This document shows, piece by piece, positions 27,656 to 43,211 of a stretch of DNA of 64,000 nt. The position numbers were made by a program, and so were the translations under genes. The stretch lies in assembly GCA_002448235.1 (NCBI GenBank), contig DIXF01000002.1, positions 249,706 through 313,705 on the forward strand, read 5' to 3'. Source of the stretch: Syntrophaceae bacterium UBA6087 (GTDB lineage: Bacteria > Desulfobacterota > Desulfomonilia > UBA1062). Within the stretch, counting starts at the first letter, position 1; the number at the start of each line of letters is the position of its first letter. The notes under the pieces were generated by a model that was not told the DNA's origin, did not search any database, and worked only from the letters and a program-made list of their open reading frames with translations.

Positions 27656-28546
27656 TTAAAGAGATCGTTCTCCTTCCTCGAGGGCGTTGAATCCCGATAT
27701 GATATCGAGCAGTTCCTCGGTAATCGAGACCTGCCGTTCCTGGTTGTACTGGTTTTTCAACTCGCCGAGCCTTTCCTTGATATTCTTTTCTGCCCCCTGC
27801 ATAGATGAGAGTCTTGCTGCGTTCTCGCTCGCCAAAGACTCAGTGAATGCGTTGAAAATGGATATATTGAGATGGTGTCTCACCAGGGCGGAGAAGAGCG
27901 TTTCGGCCTCCATGCGGAACACCGGCAAATTCCTGGTGGGCCAGGGTTTTCCGGTAAGGCTTTCCAGCCACTGTCTGTCAAGGGGCAGCAGCCGGAGCAT
28001 GCGGGGTTCATACGAAGCCCCTGAGATGTGGTGATTGTATTCGAGCAGGACCTGCCCAATCCTGTACCGGCTGTTCCATTGATCGATGGTTGTGATGATC
28101 TCCTGCACGGTGGGAGGCATACCATCAGGCGATAACGGCACCGGGATAAGGTCCTGTATCGGCAGGCCTTCACTCAGGAGGCGGGTATGAATCCTTTGTC
28201 CTACGCACAGGATCAGAACGTCCTGAGAGCTTATTTCATGGCTTTTGATGGTATTCAGGGTGTGCTCGGCGATCCTGTCGTTGAACTGTCCGCATAGCCC
28301 CTGATCCGATCCGAAAACCAGGATGCCGGTTGGGCCGGGTCCCTGCCGCTGGTCTTTTCCGGGGGGAAGGTTCCTGAGCAACCCGCGGAAAGCGAGCAAG
28401 ACCGCCCTGTTGTATTCCTTGAGAGATTCCTGGATCCTCTCGTATTCGCGGATGTTTACCGAAGCGAGGGCCTTCATGGTCTTGACCACGGAGAGGAGGT
28501 CTTCGGCAGTGTCATGCTTCTTTTTCAATACCTGGAGATCGGGCAT
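27656..28546 (-). CDS. atpG: N-ATPase gamma subunit (AtpG)
   Basis: N-terminus [10 protein letters not shown]...[13 protein letters not shown]-terminal [16 protein letters not shown]. Last gene of the operon. Confidence 0.8.
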
Positions 28547-30101
28547 CTTCTTTCCTTTGGATATATGCATCCGCAGTCTCCCGGGCGATCCTGACGAGAG
28601 ACTGCCAGTCCTCGTCCGAAAGGTCTTTGTCGGATTCGATTCTTTCACAAATTTCCGGAAGGAGTTCTCTGACCGAGGATCTGATGGCCTTTTCCACGGA
28701 AGTGATGTCTTCCATAGGGATACGGTCGAATACTCCTCTGGTGACGGCAACGAGTACGGTGATCTGTTCACAGGGGCTCATGGTATCGTATTGAGACTGC
28801 TTTAGGGATTCTCTGACGCGACGTCCCCTCCCAAGGATGCTCAGCGTCTGTTCATCGAGCCTGGTGCCGATCCTGGAGAAGGTTTCGAGCTCTTCGAACT
28901 GGGTGTAGGAAAGCCTCAAGTCTCCCGCTACCACCCGATAAGCCCTGCGCTGGGCTTTGCCGCCGACCCGGGATACCGATCTGCCGACATCCACCGAGGG
29001 AAGCTGGCCTTTATGGAAGAGTTCGGGCGAAAGGTAGACCTGACCGTCGGTAATGGAGATGAGATTGGTGGGGATATATGCGGAGATATTCTGGGCCTGT
29101 GTTTCCACAATGGGGAGCGATGTCAGAGAACCGCCTCCGAGCGCATCATTCAGATGCCCCGACCGTTCGAGCAGGCGCGAGTGTATGTAGAAGATGTCTC
29201 CGGGAAAGGCCTCACGTCCGGGTGGTCGTCTCAGGAGGAGAGATATCTCGCGATAGATCCTCGCATGCCTGGTGAGATCGTCATATACGATCAGGACATC
29301 CCGGCCACTGTCCAGGAAATATTCGCCGACTGTCGTGGCGCTGTAAGGAGCGGTATACTGCAGGCCGGGGGGGTCTTCGCCCACGGCCGTCATTACCATT
29401 GTATAATCCATTGCGCCCTGTTTCGTGAGCTCGGAGACGACCTTGGCGATAAAAGAGCTCTCTTTCCCGATTGCGCAGTATATGCAGATGATGTCCTTGC
29501 CTTTCTGATTGATGATGGTATCCAGTGCGATGGCGGTCTTGCCGGTCTGGCGGTCGCCGATGATGAGCTCGCGCTGCCCTTTGCCGATGGGGATGAGCGT
29601 ATCGATCACCTTGATCCCTGTCTGCAGGGGTTCGGTAACCGGGAGCCGGTCCATGATATCGGGCGCCTTCCGCTCGACATACCGGTATTCGACGGCGGTC
29701 ACGGGGCCTTTGTTGTCACGCGGCCTGCAGACTGCATCCACGACCCTGCCGATCAATCCTTCGCCCACCGGTACCTCGAGAACCCGGCCTGTCCGGTGAA
29801 CCTCCATGCCCGAAGAAAGGTCGCTTCCTTCATCCAGCAGCACTACCCCCACACTGTCGATATGGATGTCGAAAGCGATCCCCAGCCTGTTGCCGGGAAA
29901 TCGGATGAGCTCTTCTGCCTGGACGCCGGGCAGCCCTTTTACCCGTGCGATCCCCTGCTCTACCTGGGTCAGAATGCCGGTCTTCAAGATCGTGAGCTCG
30001 GGCCGGTAGCCGTCCAGTACACTCCGGGTAAGAGGAGAGGTTTTTTCCACAACCCGTAAGATGTCGGCCAGCAGCGATAGTCCTCCTTCCGCTTCACTCA
30101 T
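28512..30101 (-). CDS. atpA: N-ATPase alpha subunit (AtpA)
   Basis: Walker A GDRQTGKT, plus the alpha signature. The start ATG overlaps the atpF stop (ATGAGTGA). Confidence 0.9.
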
Positions 30102-30888
30102 GTGCGATCTCCCGCTCCCGGTGCTGACCGAAGGTATCGATAATGGACCGGGAGACCTTTTCCTCAATGTCCTCAAGAAACTGGTCTGCGTTCCAGCCGA
30201 CCTTGTATCCGTCGGCGCTCACTTCTATGCCCAGGCTCATAGCAGGGGAGTGCAGAAAGCGGACGGCAACGTTTTCGGAAAACACCTCTTTCAAGGTTTC
30301 CGAAATCGTGTGACGTACGGCGTGGTCCGGATCGAATGAGCTGGTGACGGTGAAAGTATTATCCCTTTTCCGGACAGCTGAAGCCAGATTATTTCTCTGA
30401 TCGGGATCGATTCCTTTCAATCGCTGTATGAAAACGTCAACCACTCCGGCTTCAATATCTTTTCCTGCAAGATCCCCGATGACGCGTTGCGCGATGCGGG
30501 TTGAGTCCTGAATGCTCATGAGCATAAGCCGCTCGGAGAGATCCTTTTTTTTCTGATCGAGGATATCGCGTTGCCGGATCATCTCTTTCCCGGCATCGTC
30601 TTGTGCCTGCCGGAGATATTCCTCACGCTTCCGGCCGGCCTCCAGAGCGGCCTCTCTCAAGATCTGCTCTTTCTGCTCCTGAAGTCTGACATTCTCCTGC
30701 CGGTATGCATCAAGCTCCTGCGCTGCCCGTTCCTGCTTTTCCTTTGCATCGTCGAGCTGGGCAGCGATCTGCTCTTTGCGTTCGCGCATGGCGGTCCTGA
30801 TCCGGCCGAAGAGGAAAAATCTCAGAAGCGCGACCAGGATCAGGAAATTGACTATCTGTGCGATTACGGTAAACCAGTCGATAATCAC
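30094..30888 (-). CDS. atpF: N-ATPase b subunit with a C-terminal delta (OSCP)-like extension. No separate delta gene is present.
   Basis: A single N-terminal TM helix, a long charged coiled coil ([29 protein letters not shown]...), then an approximately 100-aa delta-like C-terminal domain. Confidence 0.8.
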
Positions 30889-30930
30889 GCCGTCTCCTTA
30901 TTTAAGCCTCGGGGGCGTGTCTGTAAAGGA

Positions 30931-31200
30931 TCACCGGGATGCATAATAGTTCCAGAAGGGATTTGCAAAAATGAGGATCATGGACACGACAAGGCAGTAT
31001 ATGACCGTTGACTCTATCATTGCCAGGCCCACGAACAGGACCCTGCTCAAGGTCCCGGACTCGTCGGGCTGCTGGGCAATGGCGGTCATGGCCTGTGCCA
31101 CTGCCCTGCCTTCGCCCAGCGCGCTGCCGATTGATCCGATGCCTATGGTAATACCGGCGGTAAAGATCGATACGATCCCGACTAAGCTCAGTGCATCCAT
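30931..31200 (-). CDS. atpE: N-ATPase c subunit carrying the Na+-binding signature
   Basis: Two-helix hairpin. Helix 2 reads ...AMIESTVIYCL (E-S-T-x-x-Y, as in Ilyobacter tartaricus c subunit E65/S66/T67/Y70). Helix 1 carries an extra Glu (GEGRAVAQ). Confidence 0.85.
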   Translation of the reverse strand: MDALSLVGIVSIFTAGITIGIGSIGSALGEGRAVAQAMTAIAQQPDESGTLSRVLFVGLAMIESTVIYCLVVSMILIFANPFWNYYASR

Positions 31201-31261
31201 ACGATAACTCTCCTTTTCATATAAGGGAAAGAGGTGCGATCGTTTCTCATTCTTTCTGTTC

Positions 31262-31951
31262 CTATTCCGTCTCGCCTTGTGTGGCAGAGGTGATGTAGAC
31301 CATGGTGAGAACCGCGAAGATATAAGCCTGAATGAAGCCCGTAAGCAGCCCGAGCACGTGGATGAATACCGGCATCACCAGCGGTACGACAACCAGCAGA
31401 ATCGCGGCTATCTTGCTCTCGGACATGATGTTTCCGAAAAGCCGCACGGCAAGGGCCAGAATGCGGGTAATTTCGCTGACGACGTTGAACGGCAGCATAA
31501 AGACTGAAGGGGTGGTAAATGTCTTCAGATAGGCGAGAACACCCCTGTTCCCGATTCCATACAGCGGGACGGCGACAAAGACGCATGCAGCTAAAGCCGT
31601 GGTGGTCGCCAGGGACCCGGTGGGAGGGACATAACCCGGAACGGCCGTGAACAGGTTGGACAGGACAATAAAGAGGAAGAGCGTTCCGATGAAAGAAAGG
31701 TATTTTTCCGCCTTTTCCTGGGAGATTTCTTCGATCTGGGATGAAAGGATCTCTACGACCGCCTCAAGGAAATTCTGCCAGGGACCGATTTTTCTTCCGG
31801 TCGAGAGTCTGCGTGTGGCCAGCAGGGAGATGAGAATCAATATCCCCATGGTGATCCAGGTGAAGAGGATCGTAACATTGAGTTTTATCCACCCCAGTTT
31901 CAGGAGCACGATCGCATCCGGGGTTATTTCGCTTATGCTCATGATTTCCAT
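31262..31951 (-). CDS. atpB: N-ATPase a subunit (AtpB). The start is uncertain: ATG at 31951 or 31942.
   Basis: Five TM helices, and the conserved stator Arg in RLFGNIMSE. The ATG overlaps the atpR stop (ATGA). Confidence 0.8.
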   Translation of the reverse strand: MEIMSISEITPDAIVLLKLGWIKLNVTILFTWITMGILILISLLATRRLSTGRKIGPWQNFLEAVVEILSSQIEEISQEKAEKYLSFIGTLFLFIVLSNLFTAVPGYVPPTGSLATTTALAACVFVAVPLYGIGNRGVLAYLKTFTTPSVFMLPFNVVSEITRILALAVRLFGNIMSESKIAAILLVVVPLVMPVFIHVLGLLTGFIQAYIFAVLTMVYITSATQGETE

Positions 31952-32253
31952 TTTGTCCCCCCTGCAGGGCTTGTCTCCCCTATTGCTGCGGGGCGCCATA
32001 TCATGATCATTGTCTGCCTTGTGCAGAAGAATCCGAGAGTGCATGCGACGAGACGCAGCCACTCGCCGTTTGAAACCAGGGAGAAGATGACGGCGGTCAA
32101 ACCGGTACGCAGCAAAAAACTTCCTAAAAGGTATAATCCCGGTTTCTGCATTGACCGTATACGCCTGACCGTGAACAGAAGGCCGCCGAAGTAGCCGAAC
32201 CCTGTTCCCACTCCTGTCAGGAATACGAGGAACAGTGAGAAGGAATCATTCAT
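31939..32253 (-). CDS. atpR: AtpR: N-ATPase-specific small membrane subunit
   Basis: 104 aa with 2-3 TM helices and a conserved intramembrane Arg (LLRTGL). Sits between atpQ and atpB, as in N-ATPase operons. Confidence 0.7.
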   Translation of the reverse strand: MNDSFSLFLVFLTGVGTGFGYFGGLLFTVRRIRSMQKPGLYLLGSFLLRTGLTAVIFSLVSNGEWLRLVACTLGFFCTRQTMIMIWRPAAIGETSPAGGTKWKS

Positions 32254-32588
32254 TGGCTCTACCGTCCTTCCGCTGCATTCCTTTCCGGGCTTTTATCTTC
32301 AGCATGGTCTTTACCCAGAACCATGCATTCAGGCAGCCGAGGATGAGCCCGATAAAGAGCAGCATCAGCGTCCACGAGTATTGACTGGGGAATCGCGAGT
32401 CAATCCATGCCCCAAGCGCTATTCCGATGAGGGTGGGGATGATTACCGACCACCCCACGAGCCCGACCATGCCCAGCCCATACACCAGGCTTATTTTTCT
32501 TTCGCGCTCAGCCTTCTCCTTTCTCTTCTCCTTGACGTCGATTTGTCTGACAAACCTTTCTCCCCGTCTTTTCTTCTTTTCCTGGAAA

Positions 32589-32596
<8 letters not shown>
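32246..32596 (-). CDS. atpQ: AtpQ (AtpZ/AtpI-like, PF09527-type) N-ATPase accessory membrane protein
   Basis: Lys/Arg-rich N-terminus, then 2 TM helices (GLGMVGLVGWSVIIPTLIGIALGAWID). 8-nt overlaps with both neighbours. Confidence 0.7.
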
Positions 32597-34440
<1,844 letters not shown>

Positions 34441-35015
34441 TTAACGATAAAGCCGTTGATGTCGCGAAAGGACTCCATAAAGAGAACCTGTCCTTAAATT
34501 CATGAATAGGGCTGTTTGCCACATTCTCAATCCTTTTTTTGCCCGGGAGCAGGAGTCCGATCGCGAAGGTGCAGACGGTATTTTTAAGGTAAAGCTGTCT
34601 CAGGGCTCGTACTTTTCTGGAATGCTTCTCGCCCTGCAGGTTTGAGTGTGGACCTGTTATTGGGCAGCTTTAAAGAAGATGTATTGCTAATGATCATATT
34701 CGGGAGTATTATTGAGCAAGTACATGACGTGACTGCATTATAGAAAGCAAAGTTGACAGGCCTACATCAATAATGATAGAAAACATGAAGTAACGCATTC
34801 AACAAGGCAATATAATAATATAGCTACCTAAGATCTACTTATAAAATAATGCAGATATACTTGCAATTAATCTATATATATTGCATGTAAGCTGGCATAA
34901 GTCATTCCTGCAGACCGTCTAAACCCTCTCGGAAGGGAATTCAACCTGATGTACAGCTCCGATTGAACTCCCTCCCGGAGAGGATCTGAAGTCTTCAGAG
35001 GGATTATCCCAGGCC

Positions 35016-35783
35016 TTATTGCCCAGCCAGCCTGCAGGTCTTATCGCCGTTTCCTCCGGATCTCAAGTCATCGGAGCTCATCATGGTAATATCCTGGTCC
35101 TGTAGGAATTGTTTCATTTTCTGCAGTGATCTTACCTGGAGCTGTCTCACCCGCTCCTGGCTCAAACCGAGCTGCGACCCTATTTCCATGAGGGTGACCG
35201 GCGGGTCTGAATAAAAGCGTTTCAGGATAATGAACAGCTCCCTCCTCGTCAGCATGGTAAATCCCTGCTGAAAGAGAAAAGATACCTGCCGGGATATTTC
35301 TCTTCCGGAATAAAGCGATTCCAGATCAAAATCATCGGTCAGGTAATCAACCCACCGGTCGGTTTCACTCGGGTCGCCGGCTATGGTTTCGTCCAGGGAA
35401 AGAAGATCTTTTGTATGCCGCAAGGTCCCTGTGCGGATCTTGCTGCTCTTACGGATAAAATCCTTTATGGATGCTTCGATCCACCATACCGCATAATAAA
35501 TGAAGTGTACGCCACGATCGGGATCGAAACGGGTAAGGGCTTTCATAAGGCCCAGGTTTCCTTCTTGGACTATTTCCAGGTAGTTGTGGCCGCTATTGAA
35601 ATATTTCTGGCTAACCTTTACGACGAACCGTAAGTTAGCATGGATTATCTTTTGGCCCGCGAAGACGTCTCCCTGCTGGTACTCCTTTGCCAGCTTGTAC
35701 TCCTCTTCGGGTGTTAAGAGAGGGTATCTCCTGATTTTTCTTAAATACAACTGCAATTCTGAATAGTCATGTCTGTTTGCCAT
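35016..35783 (-). CDS. Sigma-70-family alternative sigma factor. It has regions 2-4 but no region 1.1 (group 3, RpoH/SigB-like).
   Basis: Regions 2.1-2.4 (ANLRFVVKVSQKY...LEIVQEGNLGLMKALTRFDPDRGVHFIYYAVWWI) and region 4 HTH (LMEIGSQLGLSQERVRQLQVRSLQKM). The start overlaps the upstream gene by 17 nt. Confidence 0.85.
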   Translation of the reverse strand: MANRHDYSELQLYLRKIRRYPLLTPEEEYKLAKEYQQGDVFAGQKIIHANLRFVVKVSQKYFNSGHNYLEIVQEGNLGLMKALTRFDPDRGVHFIYYAVWWIEASIKDFIRKSSKIRTGTLRHTKDLLSLDETIAGDPSETDRWVDYLTDDFDLESLYSGREISRQVSFLFQQGFTMLTRRELFIILKRFYSDPPVTLMEIGSQLGLSQERVRQLQVRSLQKMKQFLQDQDITMMSSDDLRSGGNGDKTCRLAGQ

Positions 35784-37548
35784 ATACCTTTACCTTTCCT
35801 GAAAGTAGCTTTACTGATTCTATGATTTCTTCCGGTTGATGAAGTTTACTGTCTGCCTTATAGCGCCTGATTGTCCGTCTGCCCGATATAACCGTTTCGA
35901 TGAGATTGGCGGTCTCCGGGTAGGTCTCTTTTAATGCCTTTTCTATATGCTCAGCGGTAACCATTCTGGTTTCCGAATAATCCTGGGCCCGTTCGATTAC
36001 GAGCAGCAGCTTCATAAGATGGCTTTCGAAGTCTCCCTTCATGAATTGCGGATGACTGCAGAGAGAAACGATTGCCTGCCGTGCGGATATATGGAAATAC
36101 TTCCTGCTGCTGATGGTACGCATATTATCAAATGACGTTTCCTTCGGCAGCCGCCGGCCCGACGCCGGCACCTTACTTCCGATGGGTCTCCCGACGAGGG
36201 AACAAAAATCCGGATCTACAAACGAAAGTATGGAATACGCGCACGTGCTTCCGCTAATTACAATGGTCGCATTGAAGGGTATTGCTTCGGCATTCGGGCT
36301 TCCGGTAGCAAAAAAGCTCCCATGCGGAACAGCAGGCATGAAAGAGATCTCTTTTTGAGAAACAGTACTTTTCAACATTTCCCAGAGGTGGAACCGGCGA
36401 AGGATCCAGGAAGCCTCGAACACGAGAATCCCCCCGTTTGCTCGGTGCAGATCTCCGGCCTTTATCTGGGTAAAATCTATCCGGGATAGGGGGAGGGATC
36501 TGTGAGTATTATTGAAACACCCAAACAAGTCTTCGCACCCTGCGTTCCGGACGAAAACAAGAGGGCGGCGTTTTGTGTCTGCCCTGCTGACAAGGACATT
36601 GACCGTGTAAGGTGAGTAAAGATCCTGATGTGAGGTATACCGCTCGGTGTTCACCGGAGCACCGGGAGAGTCTTCTTCAGTGGGTAAGGTGAAGATGTGC
36701 AGATTGTTGAGGATGTCTTCCTCTACATCTTCCAGATACACAAGCACCTTCGGCAAACGCCGATATTTTTTCCTGATTCTGGCCATCAGTGGGTGAATCG
36801 CTTCCCGTGCATGCTCTCTCGTCAGTGCATCGAGCTCTTCGGTGCACCGTTTTTTGAGTAGCCTTACCCGGTCGCGTATGATCCGGTAATCTACCGGCTG
36901 CGGTTGATCGAAAATCGCAACAGCACTGGTAGCGGCGGGTATCGTGCCTACCCCGGAAAACGCTATGACCGGATCGGCAAAGTTTTCTTCCGGGGTTTTA
37001 GATCCCTGTAAGACATGGTTGTGAAGACGTCTCTTGAGGCTCTTATAGAGAGGTCTGACCGTGGACTGCTCCTGCTGGTCATAGTACTCCTTGAGTTGCC
37101 CAAGCTTTTTCTGGAAACTGTCGGAAACCAGGATACCGCGGAGGCGCTGCCGTATTTCGTCGATAAGATGTTCCATATCGGAACGGAACTGCATCCCTCT
37201 TCCTGAAGGAAGATCAATAACTCTTGGCCGTGATTCTACCTGGAAGTTATGGACACAGCACAAATCGCAGGGTTGTGGGAGAGATCGTCCCATATGATTC
37301 AAATGCCGGATGAATTCCCTGCTGCCGTATGAATGATCCTCTGAAGAGAGGAGGAAGAGAAAATCCGTCCCCTTCTCAACAGGGATCGCCCATCTCTGTG
37401 CAAAGGACCAAATCGGGTTTTTAGCCAACTTTCCAAAAAGATCGTACATTATTCCTTGCAACGTATTTTTCCCCTTAAATATTTGCTTCCGAGCCTGGTG
37501 ACCGTCTTTCATGCGGGTTGCCAATTGTGGTTTCAGGTAGCTACCCAA
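35767..37548 (-). CDS. Lon-like/EBP-like degenerate AAA+ domain protein (593 aa) with no recognisable protease domain. The start is uncertain (TTG at 37548 or ATG at 37449).
   Basis: EDLFGC...DLHRANGGILVFEA resembles the LonB/sigma-54-EBP Walker B neighbourhood but lacks the DE pair. The putative P-loop FSGVGTIPAATS has lost its Lys. A C-terminal AAA lid-like helical bundle is present. No Ser-Lys Lon catalytic motif and no GAFTGA. Confidence 0.6.
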   Translation of the reverse strand: MGSYLKPQLATRMKDGHQARKQIFKGKNTLQGIMYDLFGKLAKNPIWSFAQRWAIPVEKGTDFLFLLSSEDHSYGSREFIRHLNHMGRSLPQPCDLCCVHNFQVESRPRVIDLPSGRGMQFRSDMEHLIDEIRQRLRGILVSDSFQKKLGQLKEYYDQQEQSTVRPLYKSLKRRLHNHVLQGSKTPEENFADPVIAFSGVGTIPAATSAVAIFDQPQPVDYRIIRDRVRLLKKRCTEELDALTREHAREAIHPLMARIRKKYRRLPKVLVYLEDVEEDILNNLHIFTLPTEEDSPGAPVNTERYTSHQDLYSPYTVNVLVSRADTKRRPLVFVRNAGCEDLFGCFNNTHRSLPLSRIDFTQIKAGDLHRANGGILVFEASWILRRFHLWEMLKSTVSQKEISFMPAVPHGSFFATGSPNAEAIPFNATIVISGSTCAYSILSFVDPDFCSLVGRPIGSKVPASGRRLPKETSFDNMRTISSRKYFHISARQAIVSLCSHPQFMKGDFESHLMKLLLVIERAQDYSETRMVTAEHIEKALKETYPETANLIETVISGRRTIRRYKADSKLHQPEEIIESVKLLSGKVKVYGKQT

Positions 37549-37790
37549 AATGCAGAGTGGCTTGAAGCACTGAACATCTTCATCTTATGAGATCTTCTCA
37601 TGCGTACCCTTGTTGTCCATTTCTTTAGTAAAGGCCGGGCAACGCGCCGGCTTGTATCGTTCCTTTTTTTATCAGGTACTTGAAGAAACTCTCCACTATG
37701 CGCCATATAATTTCTCTCATTCCCATGCTGCTAATGAAGGGTGAGAAGGCTTTAGGGGCCTCATGGAGCATCGCCGTCTTAATGATCAAA

Positions 37791-38055
37791 TCAGTCGAAC
37801 AATTCAGGAAAGCTCTCCCTTACGTCGCGAGGGTGTTTGAATCTGATCCGACCATGTAAAAACATGCTGGAGATCTTTTTTGCGATAAGCCTGTCCTGAG
37901 CGGGAATGTATTTCCCCTGGACAGATTCGGAAAAGCGAGAGCCTTTCGTATTGTCAATGCTCTCGCCTATTGCCTCCATGAGGTCATAGAGGGTGGTGGT
38001 GATTTCTACTTTTCTGCTCCTCGATCCTACTGAACTATAACCACTATGTATGCTC
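37791..38055 (-). CDS. Hypothetical small protein (88 aa) with a very strong RBS
   Basis: GGAGGAT Shine-Dalgarno 5 nt before the ATG (MSIHSGYSS...). No family recognised. Confidence 0.55.
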
Positions 38056-38377
38056 ATAGTAAATCCTCCTATTGTCTCTGTTGAGGTTCGGGCATTCATC
38101 TTCTTCAGTACGGATGAAGCCCGTGCGTCACAGCCTCTTTATTCAAATGGTGTGCCGTTGTTGTGAAACTGAAATAAATCACATAAATTCATTCAGGTAA
38201 GAAATTGGGCTCTGAAACACAGTTCTCCTGTGCACCGATTGCTGTCCTGTGAAGCGGGATAAGTCCTCTCTGATGAGATTCTCACTCGTGAAGATATAAA
38301 TTCAGGCGAAATCCCGACGCGTTATGTCCATCGATCACGCCGGACATTACATTTCTATGATTAGCTATACCTATTAG

Positions 38378-38396
38378 CCTGCTCCTCCGGTGCCAT
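38378..38396 (-). promoter_or_regulatory. Candidate sigma-54 (-24/-12) promoter on the minus strand: TGGCACcggaggaGCA
   Basis: Perfect -24 TGGCAC with the GG-N10-GC spacing. The -12 box carries only the GC. Lies about 115 nt downstream of the Fis-like gene and about 320 nt upstream of the 88-aa ORF. Confidence 0.35.
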
Positions 38397-38511
38397 GAAA
38401 AAAGAATCACTCCCCGGCATTATGACCGGCGGGATAGAGCAGGTTCCTGCCCGGCATCGGATTAACCTTTACGGCCGTTCTTGGAAGGACTGTTTTTCAA
38501 GGAAGTACTGG

Positions 38512-38754
38512 TTACATATGCCTTGAGAGGTCATGTTTATGGAGCAGTGCGTATAATCGGGAGCGCGACAACCCGGATATCCTGCAGGCATTCGATACAT
38601 CGCCAGAGGTGCATTTCATCAGTTCCACGAGATAGAAGCGCTCTACCTCTGTAATGTACCGGTTACGGATCGAGCGCAGCCGAGGAAGATCGGGCGACGG
38701 CGACCGGTTCATTTTTATGAGGATCTGAGTGAATGACGGTTTCTGAATATCCAT
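38512..38754 (-). CDS. Small stand-alone Fis-type HTH (HTH_8) protein, a paralog of the C-terminal DNA-binding domain of the adjacent sigma-54 response regulator
   Basis: ERFYLVELMKCTSGDVSNACRISGLSRSRLYALLHKH is collinear with the response regulator's C-terminus EEQYLKELLRQAKSDIKTACRVSGLSRSRLYALLKKY (about 70% nucleotide identity). Weak Shine-Dalgarno. Confidence 0.45.
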   Translation of the reverse strand: MDIQKPSFTQILIKMNRSPSPDLPRLRSIRNRYITEVERFYLVELMKCTSGDVSNACRISGLSRSRLYALLHKHDLSRHM

Positions 38755-39023
38755 ACGGCACAGTTATAACAAGGTATATGCCAACATGATCGAACTGAAT
38801 AGAAACAAAAACCATAAAAATTATGAATTCAGCAGGTTAGAAGCATAAAAACCCTTCTAACTGCTATGAATGAATAGAAAGTCGCCTCTCACTGGATTTC
38901 CTGAATGCGAATACCGGGGAAAGGAGAGTCCACTGGGAGAGAGACGATCTGCCGTCCAAACATGACTGTCCGGAGGAATCCTGTTTTTTAATAAAAATGG
39001 ACGCTGAGAAGGAAACAGGCCGA

Positions 39024-40427
39024 TCAGGAGATCTCGTACTTTTTCAGCAGGGCATATAAGCGCGAGCGGGAGAGTCCGGAGACCCTGCAGGCGGTCTTGA
39101 TATCGGATTTTGCCTGTCGCAGAAGCTCTTTAAGGTACTGCTCCTCGATCTCGCTTACTGCCTCTTCGCGGACATCTTTGAGGCTTGGCAGACTGTTGTC
39201 CCCCGACACAACGATTGTTTCTGGTTGGACCTGCTTTTTAGCAGCGGCAGCCCGCTTGACATGGACATGTATATGATAGGGAAGGTGCTTTGGCACGAGG
39301 ATCGGGCTGTCATGAGCTACAGCAAGTGCGCTCTCGAGGGCATGTATGATCTCCCGGACGTTGCCCGGCCATGAGTACTGCAGAAGGATGTCGCGGAAGG
39401 CGGCACTGACACGCTTGGGCTTTATCCCGTATTTTTTGCTGTGCCGCTTGAGGTAATGATTTGTCAGCTCCTGGATGTCTTCGGGGCGCTCTCTCAGTGG
39501 AGGCAGATCGATACTGATGGACCTGAGCCTGAAGAGGAGATCCTTCCTGAATCTCTTGCTCTGAACCACATCATCCAGATTGCGATTCGTAGCGGAAATG
39601 ACACGGAAATCGCTCTCCACCTCGCTCGATTTTCCTATGGGCCGGAAACGCCCTTCCTGCAGGACGCGCAGGAACTTTTTCTGGACGGAAAGGGGAAGCT
39701 CTCCCACTTCGTCCAGGAACAGTGTCCCTTTATGGGCCTGGCTCACCAGGCCGGGCTGGGCTTTGTCTGCGCCGGTATACGAGCCTTTCTCGTATCCGAA
39801 GAGAATGCTTTCTACGAGATTGGGTGGCAGGGCCGCACAGTCGACAACCACAAAATCGTTCCCGGCGCGAAGCGAGTGATTGTGTATTGCCCGGGCAAAA
39901 AGCTCCTTGCCGGTGCCCGTCTCTCCGGTAATCAGTACGCTCGCGTCATTGGCGAGTGTCTTGCTCAAGAGCGTCAGGCATTTTTTCATCCCCGGACTGT
40001 GCCCGATAATCCCTTCCTTTTCGAAATTCAGCACTGCCTGGGGGAGGCAGTTGCTCTCGTGGTAGAGGATCGCATCTTTGAGAAGCTGCGACAGATCGTT
40101 TTTTGAGAAAGGTTTTTCAATATAATCCCATGCTCCCCGGGAGAGGGCCAGTTCCACTGATTCGGGGTCTCCATAAGCGGTAATGACGATTACCTCGGGA
40201 GATCCGCTGTTCTTGCAAACCTGGGGAAGAATGTCGATGCCGTTTCCGTCCGGCATGCGGACATCGAGGAAGACAACGTCGTATGCCTCTGCCCTGACCG
40301 CATCGAGCCCTTCCTCGAGGGTAAAGGCCTGGTTGCTGTTATATCCCAGGAGGCGCGACACGTTTGCAATGGAGCTGCAAACAAGCTTGTCGTCATCGAT
40401 TACGAGGATCTTTTTACGTTCTTCCAT
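39024..40427 (-). CDS. Sigma-54-dependent response regulator (NtrC family): receiver, AAA+ EBP domain and Fis-type HTH
   Basis: Receiver domain with phospho-accepting D (VVFLDVRMPDGNG). Walker A GETGTGKE. GAFTGA-equivalent GSYTGA. ESILFGYEKG. Walker B TLFLDEVG. C-terminal HTH. Confidence 0.9.
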   Translation of the reverse strand: MEERKKILVIDDDKLVCSSIANVSRLLGYNSNQAFTLEEGLDAVRAEAYDVVFLDVRMPDGNGIDILPQVCKNSGSPEVIVITAYGDPESVELALSRGAWDYIEKPFSKNDLSQLLKDAILYHESNCLPQAVLNFEKEGIIGHSPGMKKCLTLLSKTLANDASVLITGETGTGKELFARAIHNHSLRAGNDFVVVDCAALPPNLVESILFGYEKGSYTGADKAQPGLVSQAHKGTLFLDEVGELPLSVQKKFLRVLQEGRFRPIGKSSEVESDFRVISATNRNLDDVVQSKRFRKDLLFRLRSISIDLPPLRERPEDIQELTNHYLKRHSKKYGIKPKRVSAAFRDILLQYSWPGNVREIIHALESALAVAHDSPILVPKHLPYHIHVHVKRAAAAKKQVQPETIVVSGDNSLPSLKDVREEAVSEIEEQYLKELLRQAKSDIKTACRVSGLSRSRLYALLKKYEIS

Positions 40428-40449: not shown

Positions 40450-42897
40450 TTATAGAAATGTAAAGCATTCTCGGTTGAGCGCCCGGTTGACGGTTTCGGA
40501 CAGAAGCGACGAGGTGAAGGGCTTGGAAAGATACGAAAAAAAGCTTATCTGGCGGGATTGAAGTTCCTGCAGCGCCTCTTCCGATCCGGAACAGATGATG
40601 ACAGGGAGGTCTTTGCGCACATCGACCATCCTTGAGGCCATTTCGTCGCCGTTCATGACAGGCATGATCTGGTCCGTGATGAGCAGATCGAACGCCTCGG
40701 GTGTCTTCATGAAGAGATCGAGTGCTTTGATCGAATCGTTCGTCGATGCGACTCTATACCCCATCCGAACCAGCATATGGTGGATGCTGCGGAGCTCTAT
40801 GGCATTATCGTCGACAAGGAGGACCCGTCCTTTCCGGTCTCCGCCGGGGTGGAGTATTTCCGGTGCGGGCTCTTGAGAAGGCTCTTCCTTCTCGGCTGAG
40901 TGCTTCGGGAGGTAGACCTCGAAGGTCGATCCTTTCCGGGGTTTGCTGTGAACAATTATTGAGCCTCCGGCATTCTTGACTACCGCGTGAACGACTCCAA
41001 GCCCCAAGCCCGATCCCTTGCCGGACTTCTTGGTGGTGAAAAGGGGGTCGAAGATTTGCTCCATGACTTCCGAGGACATGCCTGAGCCGGTGTCTTTGAC
41101 CGTGATCTTCAGATAATCACCGGGGCCCAGGATAGAAACGGACGCAGGCGTAGCAGTGTGGACTTGCGTTTCTTCGAGCTTGACCGTGAGAACGCCCTGC
41201 CCCTCTTCCATGGACTGTATCGCGTTCATGCAGAGATTGGCGAGTAGCTGATAGAATTGCGGCGGATCGGTCCTCACGAGGCCCTTGGTTGACGCGATTG
41301 TCTGTCGGAGCGTGATGCGGGCAGGGAGGGACTGGCCGATGATCCTCAATGCGTCCCGCACGACAGGCGCTATGGCCACTGGCTTGAAGAGGACCTTTTT
41401 CCTGACCCCGAACATTTTGATCTGGTTCGTAATATCCTTGCCTATACGTGCCGCCTCCATGATTTGATAGAGGTATTCACGTTCCGGGGCATCCTGGGGC
41501 AGCGAATCCGCAACGAGCTCCGCATTGATGAGGATCGGCTGGAGGATATTGATGAAATCATGGGCAATGCCTCCTGCGAGCATGCCGAGCGCCTCCATCC
41601 TGCGCTTCCGCTCAAGGGCGCTCTGCAGGGCTTTTTCATCCGTAACGTCATGTTCGATAACCGTATAATTCGTAACTGCTCCTCCGTCATCTCCCACAGG
41701 GGAGATGATGATATCCAGTTCGCGTCTGGTGCCGTCATTTCTCGTCCTCTTGATAAAGCCCCTCCAGGGCTTGTCTCCGATCTCCTTCAAGGACAGCACG
41801 CCTTCCTGTACGCCATCGGGGGAGGCGTACTTTTCATACAGCTTGCCGCCCGGTTCCTCGCGGGTGGTTCCCAGCGACCGTTCCGCTGCAGGATTAAGGT
41901 ACTGGATCATCCCGTGCGAATCGAGGATGAGAATGCTTTCGGTGGCGTTCTCAATGGCAGATATGAGGAGCTTTTTTTCCTGCTCGGTTTTCCGGTATGC
42001 GGTTATGTCTACTGATATTCCTCCGATAAATTTCGGGGAATTATTACCGAGTATGGGAAACTTCTGGGTGAAAAACGTCAGTTGCCGGTTCCTGGCGGAA
42101 AACTCTTCAACCGTCTTTAAATCCTTCCCGGTGCTCAGGACAGTTCTATCGCCTTCGTGAATACTTTGGGCAATCTCTCCGGGCCAGAGGTCGGAAGCGG
42201 TTTTCCCGATGCACTCATTGACCTGTATCCCATAGATTCCTTCAATATATCGATTGAGATACAGGAAACGGCCATGCTCATCCTTGAGGTAGACCATGCC
42301 CGGGAAATGGTCCATAAAGAGTGAAAACTGCTCCTCGTTTTGCCGTAAATCTTCTTCCAGGCGTTTTCGTTCTTCAATTTCGAACTTGAGGCGACGGTTG
42401 GTCCTCAGGAGCTGGGCGGTCCGCCGGAGTACTTCCTGCTCCAGAGTCAGGTGGGCATCCTGAAGCACTGCTTCGGCCTCTTGTCTCAACAGCGAGTCTT
42501 TATGGCGTCGAATGACATTGCTCAAGATCACGGGCAGCAGATCCTTATATGCAGCGGAATCTTTTAAGAGATAATCGCACACGCCTTCTTTGAGGGCTTT
42601 GGGGATTTTATTTATCGAATCCTGGGAGGTGATCAGGACGAAGGGCGGCAGCCCGTCTCTTTTCTTTACCTTTCTGAAAAGGTCCAGGCCTGAAAGATCG
42701 GGCAACCCGATGTCCGCAACGACAAGATCGAATGATTCGTTCCGGTCTTTGATCAGACTGAGAGCTTCATCTGCCCGGGCGCACTCACGTATCTCGCAAC
42801 AGAAGCTGCTTTTACCCAGGGCTCGCCGGAACGCAAGGCGGTCCTGTTCGATGTGCTCAATGAGAAGGATGCGCAGCGTGATCTCCGGTTTCGTCAT
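40450..42897 (-). CDS. Hybrid sensor histidine kinase: N-terminal receiver, two PAS domains, HisKA/HATPase_c and a C-terminal receiver. The ORF extends to 43050.
   Basis: Receiver 1 (DLVVADIGLPDLSG). PAS (FMDHFPGMVYLKDEHGRF; SILILDSHGMIQYLN). H-box GIAHDFIN. G-boxes DTGSGMS/GLGLGV. Receiver 2 (LLITDQIMPVMNG). Confidence 0.85.
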   Translation of the reverse strand: MTKPEITLRILLIEHIEQDRLAFRRALGKSSFCCEIRECARADEALSLIKDRNESFDLVVADIGLPDLSGLDLFRKVKKRDGLPPFVLITSQDSINKIPKALKEGVCDYLLKDSAAYKDLLPVILSNVIRRHKDSLLRQEAEAVLQDAHLTLEQEVLRRTAQLLRTNRRLKFEIEERKRLEEDLRQNEEQFSLFMDHFPGMVYLKDEHGRFLYLNRYIEGIYGIQVNECIGKTASDLWPGEIAQSIHEGDRTVLSTGKDLKTVEEFSARNRQLTFFTQKFPILGNNSPKFIGGISVDITAYRKTEQEKKLLISAIENATESILILDSHGMIQYLNPAAERSLGTTREEPGGKLYEKYASPDGVQEGVLSLKEIGDKPWRGFIKRTRNDGTRRELDIIISPVGDDGGAVTNYTVIEHDVTDEKALQSALERKRRMEALGMLAGGIAHDFINILQPILINAELVADSLPQDAPEREYLYQIMEAARIGKDITNQIKMFGVRKKVLFKPVAIAPVVRDALRIIGQSLPARITLRQTIASTKGLVRTDPPQFYQLLANLCMNAIQSMEEGQGVLTVKLEETQVHTATPASVSILGPGDYLKITVKDTGSGMSSEVMEQIFDPLFTTKKSGKGSGLGLGVVHAVVKNAGGSIIVHSKPRKGSTFEVYLPKHSAEKEEPSQEPAPEILHPGGDRKGRVLLVDDNAIELRSIHHMLVRMGYRVASTNDSIKALDLFMKTPEAFDLLITDQIMPVMNGDEMASRMVDVRKDLPVIICSGSEEALQELQSRQISFFSYLSKPFTSSLLSETVNRALNRECFTFL

Positions 42898-43211
42898 CTG
42901 CTCTTGCGTGCGTTCATTTTTCCTGGAGTGTGTTTCATTCCCTCTGGTCCGATCGTTCGCCTCTGCTCTCTTAAGGGAGATTTTTCCGTTATGGAGAAAG
43001 ATCCCCCGGAAGGCCTCATGGCCGGATGCCTGATTGCACATACCATTCAATGCTGTATATCACCCTGAATATTGCAGGCCTTGATGAATGAAGCTTCTGA
43101 AGTATTAAAAATGCTGCAAAATACGAAAAGTGCTCTATCACGGATCGTTCTTCATGGCAAAGAGAAAATATATATGGAATGGAAGGCTTTATCACGAGGG
43201 TATTCATGAAC

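Follow-up and report, generated by a model that had tools for sequence, protein, structure and literature searches.

In Escherichia coli the heat-shock sigma factor RpoH (sigma32) is bound by the chaperones DnaK/DnaJ/GrpE and GroEL, a chaperone feedback in which the chaperones use ATP, are encoded outside the rpoH operon and act via region 2.1 and the RpoH box. Cascades leading from sigma-54 to an alternative sigma factor are known from the Hk2-Rrp2-RpoN-RpoS pathway of Borrelia and from the sigma-54-dependent P6 promoter of E. coli rpoH, and sigma factors of the extracytoplasmic function (ECF) type and others are paired with an anti-sigma factor in one operon. Here we describe a locus that bears a likeness to each of these systems. 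It lies in a stretch of 64,000 nucleotides from Syntrophaceae bacterium UBA6087 (contig DIXF01000002.1, positions 249,706 to 313,705), referred to below as the 64-kb window, in which the gene for a Lon-like protein without a protease domain, LonC', overlaps the start of a gene for an RpoH-like sigma factor and is preceded by the gene for an 88-aa protein, s88.

By sequence and by fold, LonC' belongs with the LonC proteases. These proteins have no ATPase activity and carry degenerate Walker motifs (PMC3391209). The subfamily member MtaLonC is a heat-shock protein that serves both as chaperone and as protease, and its helical-hairpin extension has been implicated in chaperone activity and substrate recognition (PMC13069640 and its reference 3). 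We found no description in the literature of a LonC without its protease domain or of the s88 family. What is new here is a LonC of which the recognition half alone remains, as a fixed member of a sigma operon, together with an undescribed family of small sigma-linked proteins. The three genes at the centre of the locus are all on the minus strand, as are the s80, regulator and kinase genes listed further below:

35016..35783, minus strand: sigma-70-family sigma factor of 255 aa, from the list of open reading frames (ORFs) and Pfam regions 1.2, 2 and 4
35767..37461, minus strand: LonC', a LonC-derived protease-less pseudo-AAA+ protein, 564 aa from the probable TTG start at 37461; the maximal ORF reaches up to 37548
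37791..38057, minus strand: s88, an 88-aa protein read from an internal ATG at 38057 within a 102-aa ORF

Identity and architecture of LonC'

Pfam assigned two domains to LonC', AAA_32 ("LonB-like AAA", PF13654; E=4.4e-23, residues 327-450) and LonC_helical (PF20437; E=1.8e-10, residues 95-128), and gave no match to the Lon_C protease domain (PF05362). Scans of the protein against NCBIfam and PADLOC returned no match. In a sequence search of the PDB, chains of MtaLonC/TTC1975 were the only solved relatives. The AlphaFold2 (AF2) model, with a predicted local distance difference test (pLDDT) score of 72, shows an AAA-like core, a lid and a long helical hairpin, with a tail that is disordered; the folded domains are modelled with confidence, and the long helices span residues 84-149 and 187-248. 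When this model was searched with Foldseek, MtaLonC (8k8v) was the best match (E 1e-16), followed by the N-domain fragment of MtaLonC (4fwv; template modelling (TM) score 0.70, normalised to the target), with archaeal LonB after MtaLonC and sigma-54 activators further behind. Judged as a sigma-54 enhancer-binding protein, LonC' has neither a PF00158 match nor a GAFTGA motif. The N-terminal portion of about 250 aa, which an earlier reading made from the sequence alone could not place, proved to be the first half of the LonC AAA-like domain together with the LonC-specific hairpin, as seen from the PF20437 and 4fwv matches.

We compared LonC' and its relatives in an alignment of nine protease-less and seven canonical LonC sequences (alignment A1). 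The canonical relatives are about 800 aa long and carry GxSGTGK(M/T)T, GGYLV(I/L)DA and a full protease domain. In LonC' and its close relatives the P-loop position is occupied by a variable stretch lacking the P-loop Gly and Lys, which reads SSEDHSYGSRE in the window, where MtaLonC has GPPSLGKHE and the nearest canonical relatives have GxSGTGK(M/T)T. The Walker-B-like motif of the protease-less clade is GGxLVxEA (GGILVFEA in the window), with Glu replacing the Asp of the LonC subfamily, and after the lid the window clade carries a tail of only about 40-45 residues, the protease domain having been deleted. A motif scan of LonC' found neither GxxxxGK[ST] nor GAFTGA. When five canonical LonC proteins were compared by tblastn with all frames of the 64-kb window, they matched the AAA-like part only and no protease domain, so that a frameshift cannot conceal one. 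The sequence-only reading had called the protein a Lon-like pseudo-AAA+ with degenerate catalytic residues (FEA in the Walker B position), no Lon protease domain and no GAFTGA, and on each of these points Pfam, alignment A1, tblastn and the motif scan agree with it; the hidden Walker or protease sequence that it had named as a possible refutation is absent.

LonC' thus shares with the LonC subfamily (MEROPS S16; MtaLonC/TTC1975; PDB 4fwd, 8k8v) the PF13654 domain, the PF20437 hairpin insertion, the lid and the degenerate Walker A and B motifs, and differs from it in having lost the entire Ser-Lys protease domain. Since degenerate Walker motifs are known from the LonC subfamily as a whole (PMC3391209), the degeneracy of LonC' is partly a family trait, and the absence of the protease domain is the true departure from LonC. 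A paralogue of LonC, the ATP-independent chaperone-protease, LonC' has lost the P-loop and the whole protease domain; by its sequence features it would be classed as LonC-derived, yet not as a LonC protease, and a catalytically dead pseudo-AAA+ state is supported. It is in effect a natural version of the 4fwv fragment with a lid added, although the identity between the two is only about 20%, the hairpin tip is not conserved within the LonC' clade, and chaperone activity of LonC' is a prediction only. A Lon-family protease of which only the half for substrate recognition and chaperone function is left, the protein offers a natural test case for a lone LonC hairpin module. The clade also has invariant motifs of its own, EASWILRxFHLWELLK and DPDF, which are of surface type and absent from canonical LonC.

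The length of LonC' depends on its start codon. Counted from the first TTG, the maximal ORF (35767-37548) has 593 aa. A conserved AAGGGGA-N9-TTG at 37461 in related loci makes the TTG at 37461 the likely start, which would give a protein of 564 aa. The public gene call (P0001, 475 aa) uses an internal Met start and omits 37195-37461, which encodes the conserved beta1 strand and the beginning of the LonC helical insertion; this call is too short.

The nearest canonical metagenomic LonC relatives have a Walker A motif that looks intact, G(E/S)SGTG(K/R)(M/T)T (alignment A1, columns 99-108), where MtaLonC has GPPSLGKHE. Because of this appearance, some proteins called LonC may still bind nucleotide.

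Linkage of the sigma factor with LonC' and s88

We surveyed the locus from both sides. Protease-less LonC-like proteins formed about ten clusters at 90% identity among 5.8 billion proteins, with four further loci in JGI metagenomes, and in a scan of genomes the sigma protein was matched at 16 loci, all in Desulfomonilia-type "deltaproteobacterial" metagenome-assembled genomes (MAGs) that include Ca. Phosphitivorax Phox-21 and UBA1062. The host range of the cassette is a narrow, uncultured lineage; these Ca. Phosphitivorax-related Desulfomonilia are uncultured syntrophs of importance in anaerobic digesters.

The same 255-aa sigma gene was found directly 3' of the protease-less LonC-like gene in every lineage that has one (13 of 13), a fixed position that sets LonC' apart from the LonC subfamily; the two canonical LonC genes examined have unrelated neighbours, none of them a sigma gene. 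The conserved neighbourhood that the sequence-only reading had asked for is therefore present, and so is the 17-nt overlap that it reported between the LonC' stop and the sigma start (35767-35783). The overlap, which it took to imply obligatory co-expression, is itself not obligatory: seven lineages have a 17-nt overlap and one an 11-nt overlap, but five have a gap of 5-15 nt instead.

Among sigma orthologues of at least 85% identity, LonC' is gone from 3 of 16 lineages (L017, L020 and L026), and the sigma gene is intact in each. In L017, which is Phox-21, only N- and C-terminal scraps of LonC' remain around an internal deletion, and the sigma factor is essentially identical to that of its neighbours. 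The gap in L026 holds nothing recognisable as LonC'. In L020 the place of LonC' is taken by an unrelated, lipoprotein-like gene and a fused remnant, which carries the N-terminal s88 motif AVEITATLFEL and ends like LonC' with ...YGEQT. Because the remnant ORFs of L017 (6040-7011) and L020 (6676-7017) still overlap the sigma ATG, by 11 and 17 nt respectively, the translational coupling of sigma to the upstream ORF appears itself to be maintained. In one further MAG (L004/L011, same contig) LonC' has a frameshift near residue 419, and tblastn splits the gene into two frames; the assembly may be at fault, or the gene may be an early pseudogene. At L023 (318-551) what is probably a canonical LonC gene was seen on the opposite strand about 6 kb from a sigma paralogue, likely a coincidence. 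A redox switch built on a WCC motif was also considered for the locus and dropped, since Gly stands in place of the second Cys in L015, L016 and L018.

The sigma factor matched PF00140, PF04542 and PF04545 (regions 1.2, 2 and 4), all above their cut-offs, and TIGR02937 (93.4 versus a cut-off of 42.9). Its best NCBIfam matches beyond this were to RpoH and RpoS, both far below their cut-offs (TIGR02392, RpoH: 175.6 bits versus 323.1). We aligned it with E. coli RpoH; in that alignment regions 1.2-2.4 and 4 are RpoH-like, there is no RpoH box, and region 3 lacks about 55 aa. The protein is a sigma-70-family member and by these features RpoH-like and region-3-less, and not RpoH proper. Beyond region 4.2 it has a C-terminal extension of about 25 residues (35016-35090, minus strand), whose last residues are ...CRLAGQ in most members of the clade with LonC' and RRLAGQ in L020; in distant members of the subfamily it is different. 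The extension could be a degron or a partner-binding tail. One MAG carries two paralogous copies of the sigma subfamily about 18 kb apart (L022 and L025, contig CAWCTR010000017.1).

The 88-aa ORF that the sequence-only reading had noted upstream on the same strand is real, and so is its near-perfect Shine-Dalgarno (SD) sequence, an AGGAGGA at 38064-38070 that stands 7 nt before the s88 ATG and is invariant in 15 related loci; its end required correction, since 38055 is the last base of the ATG and the ORF runs to 38057. s88 has the motifs TTLYDLM and MFxSGRI(R/K)F. Scans of Pfam, NCBIfam and PADLOC gave no match to it, PHROGs gave a single match at chance level (E=0.048), and a Sel1-repeat match of the s88 profile (P0088) was judged to be a chance or low-complexity resemblance. 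The AF2 model of s88 has three short helices, and a Foldseek search of the PDB with it gave no meaningful match. We searched 1.84 billion representative sequences with the s88 profile and found 13 members only.

Linkage of s88 to the sigma gene reaches deeper than that of LonC'. Of the 31 loci fetched that carry the sigma gene, 29 have a homologue directly upstream of it in a scan with the s88 hidden Markov model. Distant s88 members (26-34% identity) stand directly 5' of sigma-subfamily genes (54-63% identity) in unrelated contexts and without a Lon-like gene. L024 has its genes in the order s88 - sigma - kinase - regulator - s80, from which it follows that the regulatory set travels together and the Lon-like gene does not. 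Because distant sigma relatives keep s88 upstream but have no LonC', s88 is the deeper, core partner of the sigma subfamily, and LonC' a clade-specific insertion into an s88-sigma cassette. A subclade (L010, L015-L019, L031 and L032) carries, in the interval from s88 to LonC', a gene for a superoxide reductase that is desulfoferrodoxin/neelaredoxin-like and 79-96% conserved, for example at 7583-7978 in L010 and at 6107-6538 in L017; the gene is absent from the window. Its presence in the operon hints at an oxidative-stress response. The most parsimonious history is an ancestral s88-sigma cassette, joined by a LonC paralogue that lost its protease, with the superoxide reductase recruited later.

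In its small gene strictly linked to sigma and its stronger ribosome-binding site, s88 resembles the anti-sigma member of sigma/anti-sigma operon pairs. It differs from them in that s88 is upstream of sigma, and in that no zinc-binding anti-sigma motif, transmembrane segment or match to a known anti-sigma family was found in it. The view of the sequence-only reading that this is not a described anti-sigma module is in keeping with the Pfam, NCBIfam and PADLOC scans, which returned no anti-sigma or defence family. The locus as a whole is a compact, undescribed cassette, in which s88 and a region-3-less RpoH-like sigma factor stand under a PAS-kinase/sigma-54 regulator.

Evolutionary rates and the role of LonC'

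We compared the rates at which the genes of the locus evolve, using amino acid identity and the ratio of nonsynonymous to synonymous substitution rates (dN/dS). Identity across the clade is 93-98% for the sigma factor (dN/dS 0.002-0.011), 71-91% for s80 (0.07-0.12) and 49-89% for s88 (mostly 0.12-0.4). LonC' is the fastest-evolving gene of the neighbourhood, at 35-63% identity and a dN/dS of 0.2-0.27 in clean pairs and up to 0.47. Within LonC' the ratio is 0.1-0.4 in the core, in helix 2 of the hairpin and in the lid, and near neutral (about 1) in the hairpin tip, one loop and the tail; the hairpin tip is the least conserved part, with a mean pairwise identity of 0.17. An intact LonC' ORF of more than 500 codons is kept in 12 of 13 lineages despite saturated synonymous sites (dS above 1). 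From the values below neutral in the core, hairpin helix 2 and lid, it follows that LonC' is a real, folded and selected product, and it is far less constrained than the sigma factor.

We read s88 - lonC' - sigma as a stress operon under two-component and sigma-54 control in Desulfomonilia-type bacteria (UBA1062 / Ca. Phosphitivorax-related). The role that we consider likeliest for LonC' within it, though tentatively and at somewhat less than an even chance, is that of a holdase or scaffold independent of ATP, which would serve the stress response as an accessory effector and not as the essential controller of sigma. LonC' would then act as the chaperone half of LonC without the degradation. 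s88, made in excess from its strong SD, would be the dedicated partner of sigma, as an anti-sigma factor or a co-factor, and LonC' (with its TTG start and weaker SD) and sigma would be made at lower, coupled levels, the translation of sigma depending on ribosomes that complete the upstream ORF. LonC' is placed in an accessory position because the sigma factor is nearly invariant while LonC' evolves fast, because LonC' has been lost three times, and because the wider sigma subfamily has s88 alone. The suggestion of the sequence-only reading that an inactive Lon-like protein partners with the sigma factor stands as far as the conserved pairing goes; an obligate role is weakened by the rates, by the losses in 3 of 16 lineages and by the relatives that have no LonC'.

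Several points weigh against an accessory holdase. Lon rings are mostly held together by their protease domains, and LonC' may not form the chaperone chamber of MtaLonC. The hairpin tip, which in MtaLonC is the site of the hydrophobic hook, is the least conserved part of LonC', which is odd for a client-binding site. Seen from the LonC' side, the co-occurrence with sigma in all 13 lineages is equally what would be expected of a dedicated sigma regulator.

A direct regulator of sigma is the alternative that survives best, and we regard it as rather unlikely. LonC' could be a holdase-type anti-sigma factor or chaperone-titration sensor; it could also be a pseudo-subunit or adaptor that passes sigma to a real protease. 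In the first version it would bind sigma (or s88) and release it when unfolded proteins compete, as in DnaK/DnaJ-sigma32. Each protease-less LonC-like gene lies directly 5' of a sigma gene and is tightly juxtaposed to it or overlaps it, canonical LonC genes are not found by sigma genes, and the clade has its own invariant surface-type motifs; the sigma factor is moreover RpoH-like, and LonC is a heat-shock chaperone-protease. The feedback on sigma32 is a possible model for a chaperone that holds a co-made RpoH-like sigma factor until clients titrate the chaperone away, although the window sigma factor has neither the RpoH box nor region 3. Against direct regulation stand the extreme asymmetry of rates between a near-invariant sigma factor and a fast LonC', three independent losses of LonC' with sigma unchanged, a wider sigma subfamily that functions with s88 alone, and an unrelated effector gene, superoxide reductase, in the same slot of the operon.

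A more specific version, in which LonC' and s88 together sequester the RpoH-like sigma factor without nucleotide and, downstream of the sigma-54 cascade, release it when unfolded or oxidised proteins compete for the hairpin basket, is in our judgement unlikely. If LonC' or s88 does bind sigma, either would represent a new class of anti-sigma factor or adaptor; if neither does, the locus is a clean case of pseudo-enzyme evolution beside an extremely constrained regulator.

It is less probable still that LonC' is a decaying relic with little function as a protein, whose frame is kept mainly for the translational coupling of sigma. Such decay would account for the loss of the P-loop and protease domain, for evolution faster than that of any gene in the neighbourhood, for the three losses and the L004/L011 frameshift, and for the remnant ORFs of L017 and L020 that still reach the sigma start codon. 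The conserved stretch at the LonC' C-terminus, GKVxxYGKQT, also fits a relic, being explained by the embedded ribosome-binding site of sigma and by sigma codons that overlap it. Coupling would, however, need no more than a short leader ORF, and the frame of more than 500 codons has stayed intact in 12 of 13 lineages at a dS above 1. The contrast between the loops, with a dN/dS of about 1, and the core, lid and second hairpin helix, with 0.1-0.4, as well as the confident AF2 model of the folded domains, likewise argues against a relic.

Neither an ordinary AAA+ Lon protease that lies beside a sigma gene by chance, its protease domain missing through a sequencing or assembly artefact, nor a mobile defence system with an MzaA-like sigma factor has any appreciable likelihood: a weak, partial PADLOC match of sigma to MzaA of the MZA anti-phage system and a slightly lower GC content at 34-38 kb are set against the same shortened architecture in 13 independent assemblies, the lack of a protease-domain match in any frame of the window, an MzaA match confined to generic sigma region 2 (89 bits versus a cut-off of 800) with no partner genes, no defence-family match for LonC' or s88 beyond the chance-level PHROGs match of s88, and a synteny that is stable and chromosomal, and we reject both.

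Promoters, regulators and flanking genes

The remaining features of the locus, from the downstream operon to the kinase gene, are as follows:

28512-34434, minus strand: N-ATPase operon (beta, epsilon, ATPase_gene1, AtpR, a, c, b, alpha), downstream of sigma and recognised by its AtpR and ATPase_gene1 markers
38141..38157, minus strand: sigma-54-type -24/-12 element CGGCACACCATTTGAAT, presumably the promoter of the operon, some 85 nt upstream of the s88 ATG
38237..38290, minus strand: conserved upstream block GAGAATCTCAT...GGACTTATCCC...ACAGGACAGCAAT, from conserved columns of the 15-locus alignment, followed by an AT-rich spacer
38512..38754, minus strand: s80, an 80-aa stand-alone Fis/HTH_8 protein (Pfam HTH_8, E=0.0013)
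38769..38785, minus strand: sigma-54-type -24/-12 element TTGGCATATACCTTGTT, which precedes the s80 ATG by about 12 nt
39024..40427, minus strand: sigma-54 enhancer-binding response regulator with receiver, Sigma54_activat, AAA lid and Fis-type helix-turn-helix (HTH) domains, from the ORF list and Pfam
40450..43041, minus strand: hybrid histidine kinase (receiver, three PAS domains, HATPase_c, receiver), from the ORF list and Pfam, the presumed sensor

The intergenic regions were compared in an alignment of 15 related loci. In the element before s88, CGGCA and TTGAATA are invariant in all 15, and CGGCA is followed by C in 14 of them and by T in L007. In the element before s80, TTGGCA and TTTGTTA are invariant, with flanks that cannot be aligned. 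Both elements have the geometry GG-N10-G(T/A), with the GG and the 10-nt spacing invariant, and both have an enhancer-binding regulator gene adjacent to them; because of this geometry and this neighbour, sigma-54 dependence of both is our best inference. The -12 dinucleotide counts against it, reading GA before s88 and GT before s80 and not the consensus GC, so that the two are putative sigma-54 promoters. The block at 38237..38290 is a candidate enhancer, or upstream activating sequence, for the regulator. Between s88 and LonC' we looked for a second promoter, and found an intergenic region that cannot be aligned and that has no conserved motif.

In the scheme that we favour, a stimulus sensed by the PAS hybrid kinase would lead to activation of the enhancer-binding regulator, which would fire the sigma-54-type promoter upstream of s88. 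The transcript would start about 12 nt downstream of CGGCACACCATTTGA (near 38133) and cover s88 through sigma. The stimulus is possibly oxidative, given the superoxide reductase gene in the same operon of a subclade, or may be another proteotoxic stress. The arrangement resembles the sigma-54 cascades in that a kinase and an enhancer-binding regulator are encoded beside an alternative sigma gene preceded by a -24/-12-type element. It differs from them in the non-consensus -12 (GT/GA), in the place of sigma as third gene of its operon behind s88 and LonC', and in the additional HTH paralogue s80.

The s80 gene, between the regulator gene and the 88-aa gene, had gone unmentioned in the sequence-only reading. 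Its product shares 51-58% identity with the C-terminus of the enhancer-binding regulator, and more than 15 loci have it conserved; s80 is a paralogue of the DNA-binding end of the regulator. No SD was found before it, and because the promoter element lies about 12 nt from the ATG, the s80 mRNA would be nearly leaderless. By competing for the enhancer sites of the regulator, s80 could exert a negative feedback.

An Rfam scan of 34300-39200 gave no match at E<=1, and in the whole window Rfam matched one tRNA-Ala only. In the spacer between sigma and atpB (580 nt and AT-rich in the window) we found no conserved block that could serve as a sigma-dependent motif 5' of the N-ATPase operon. This operon is 3' of the sigma gene in most lineages and is not adjacent in L010, L014, L015 and L018; because of the spacer and of these lineages, it is outside the module. 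On the other side of the cluster, the hybrid kinase gene is syntenic at all related loci (57-82% identity) and the enhancer-binding regulator is 86-94% identical between loci. The position of the cluster between a sigma-54 two-component system and the N-ATPase operon, as first read from the sequence, agrees with the Pfam domains of both flanks.

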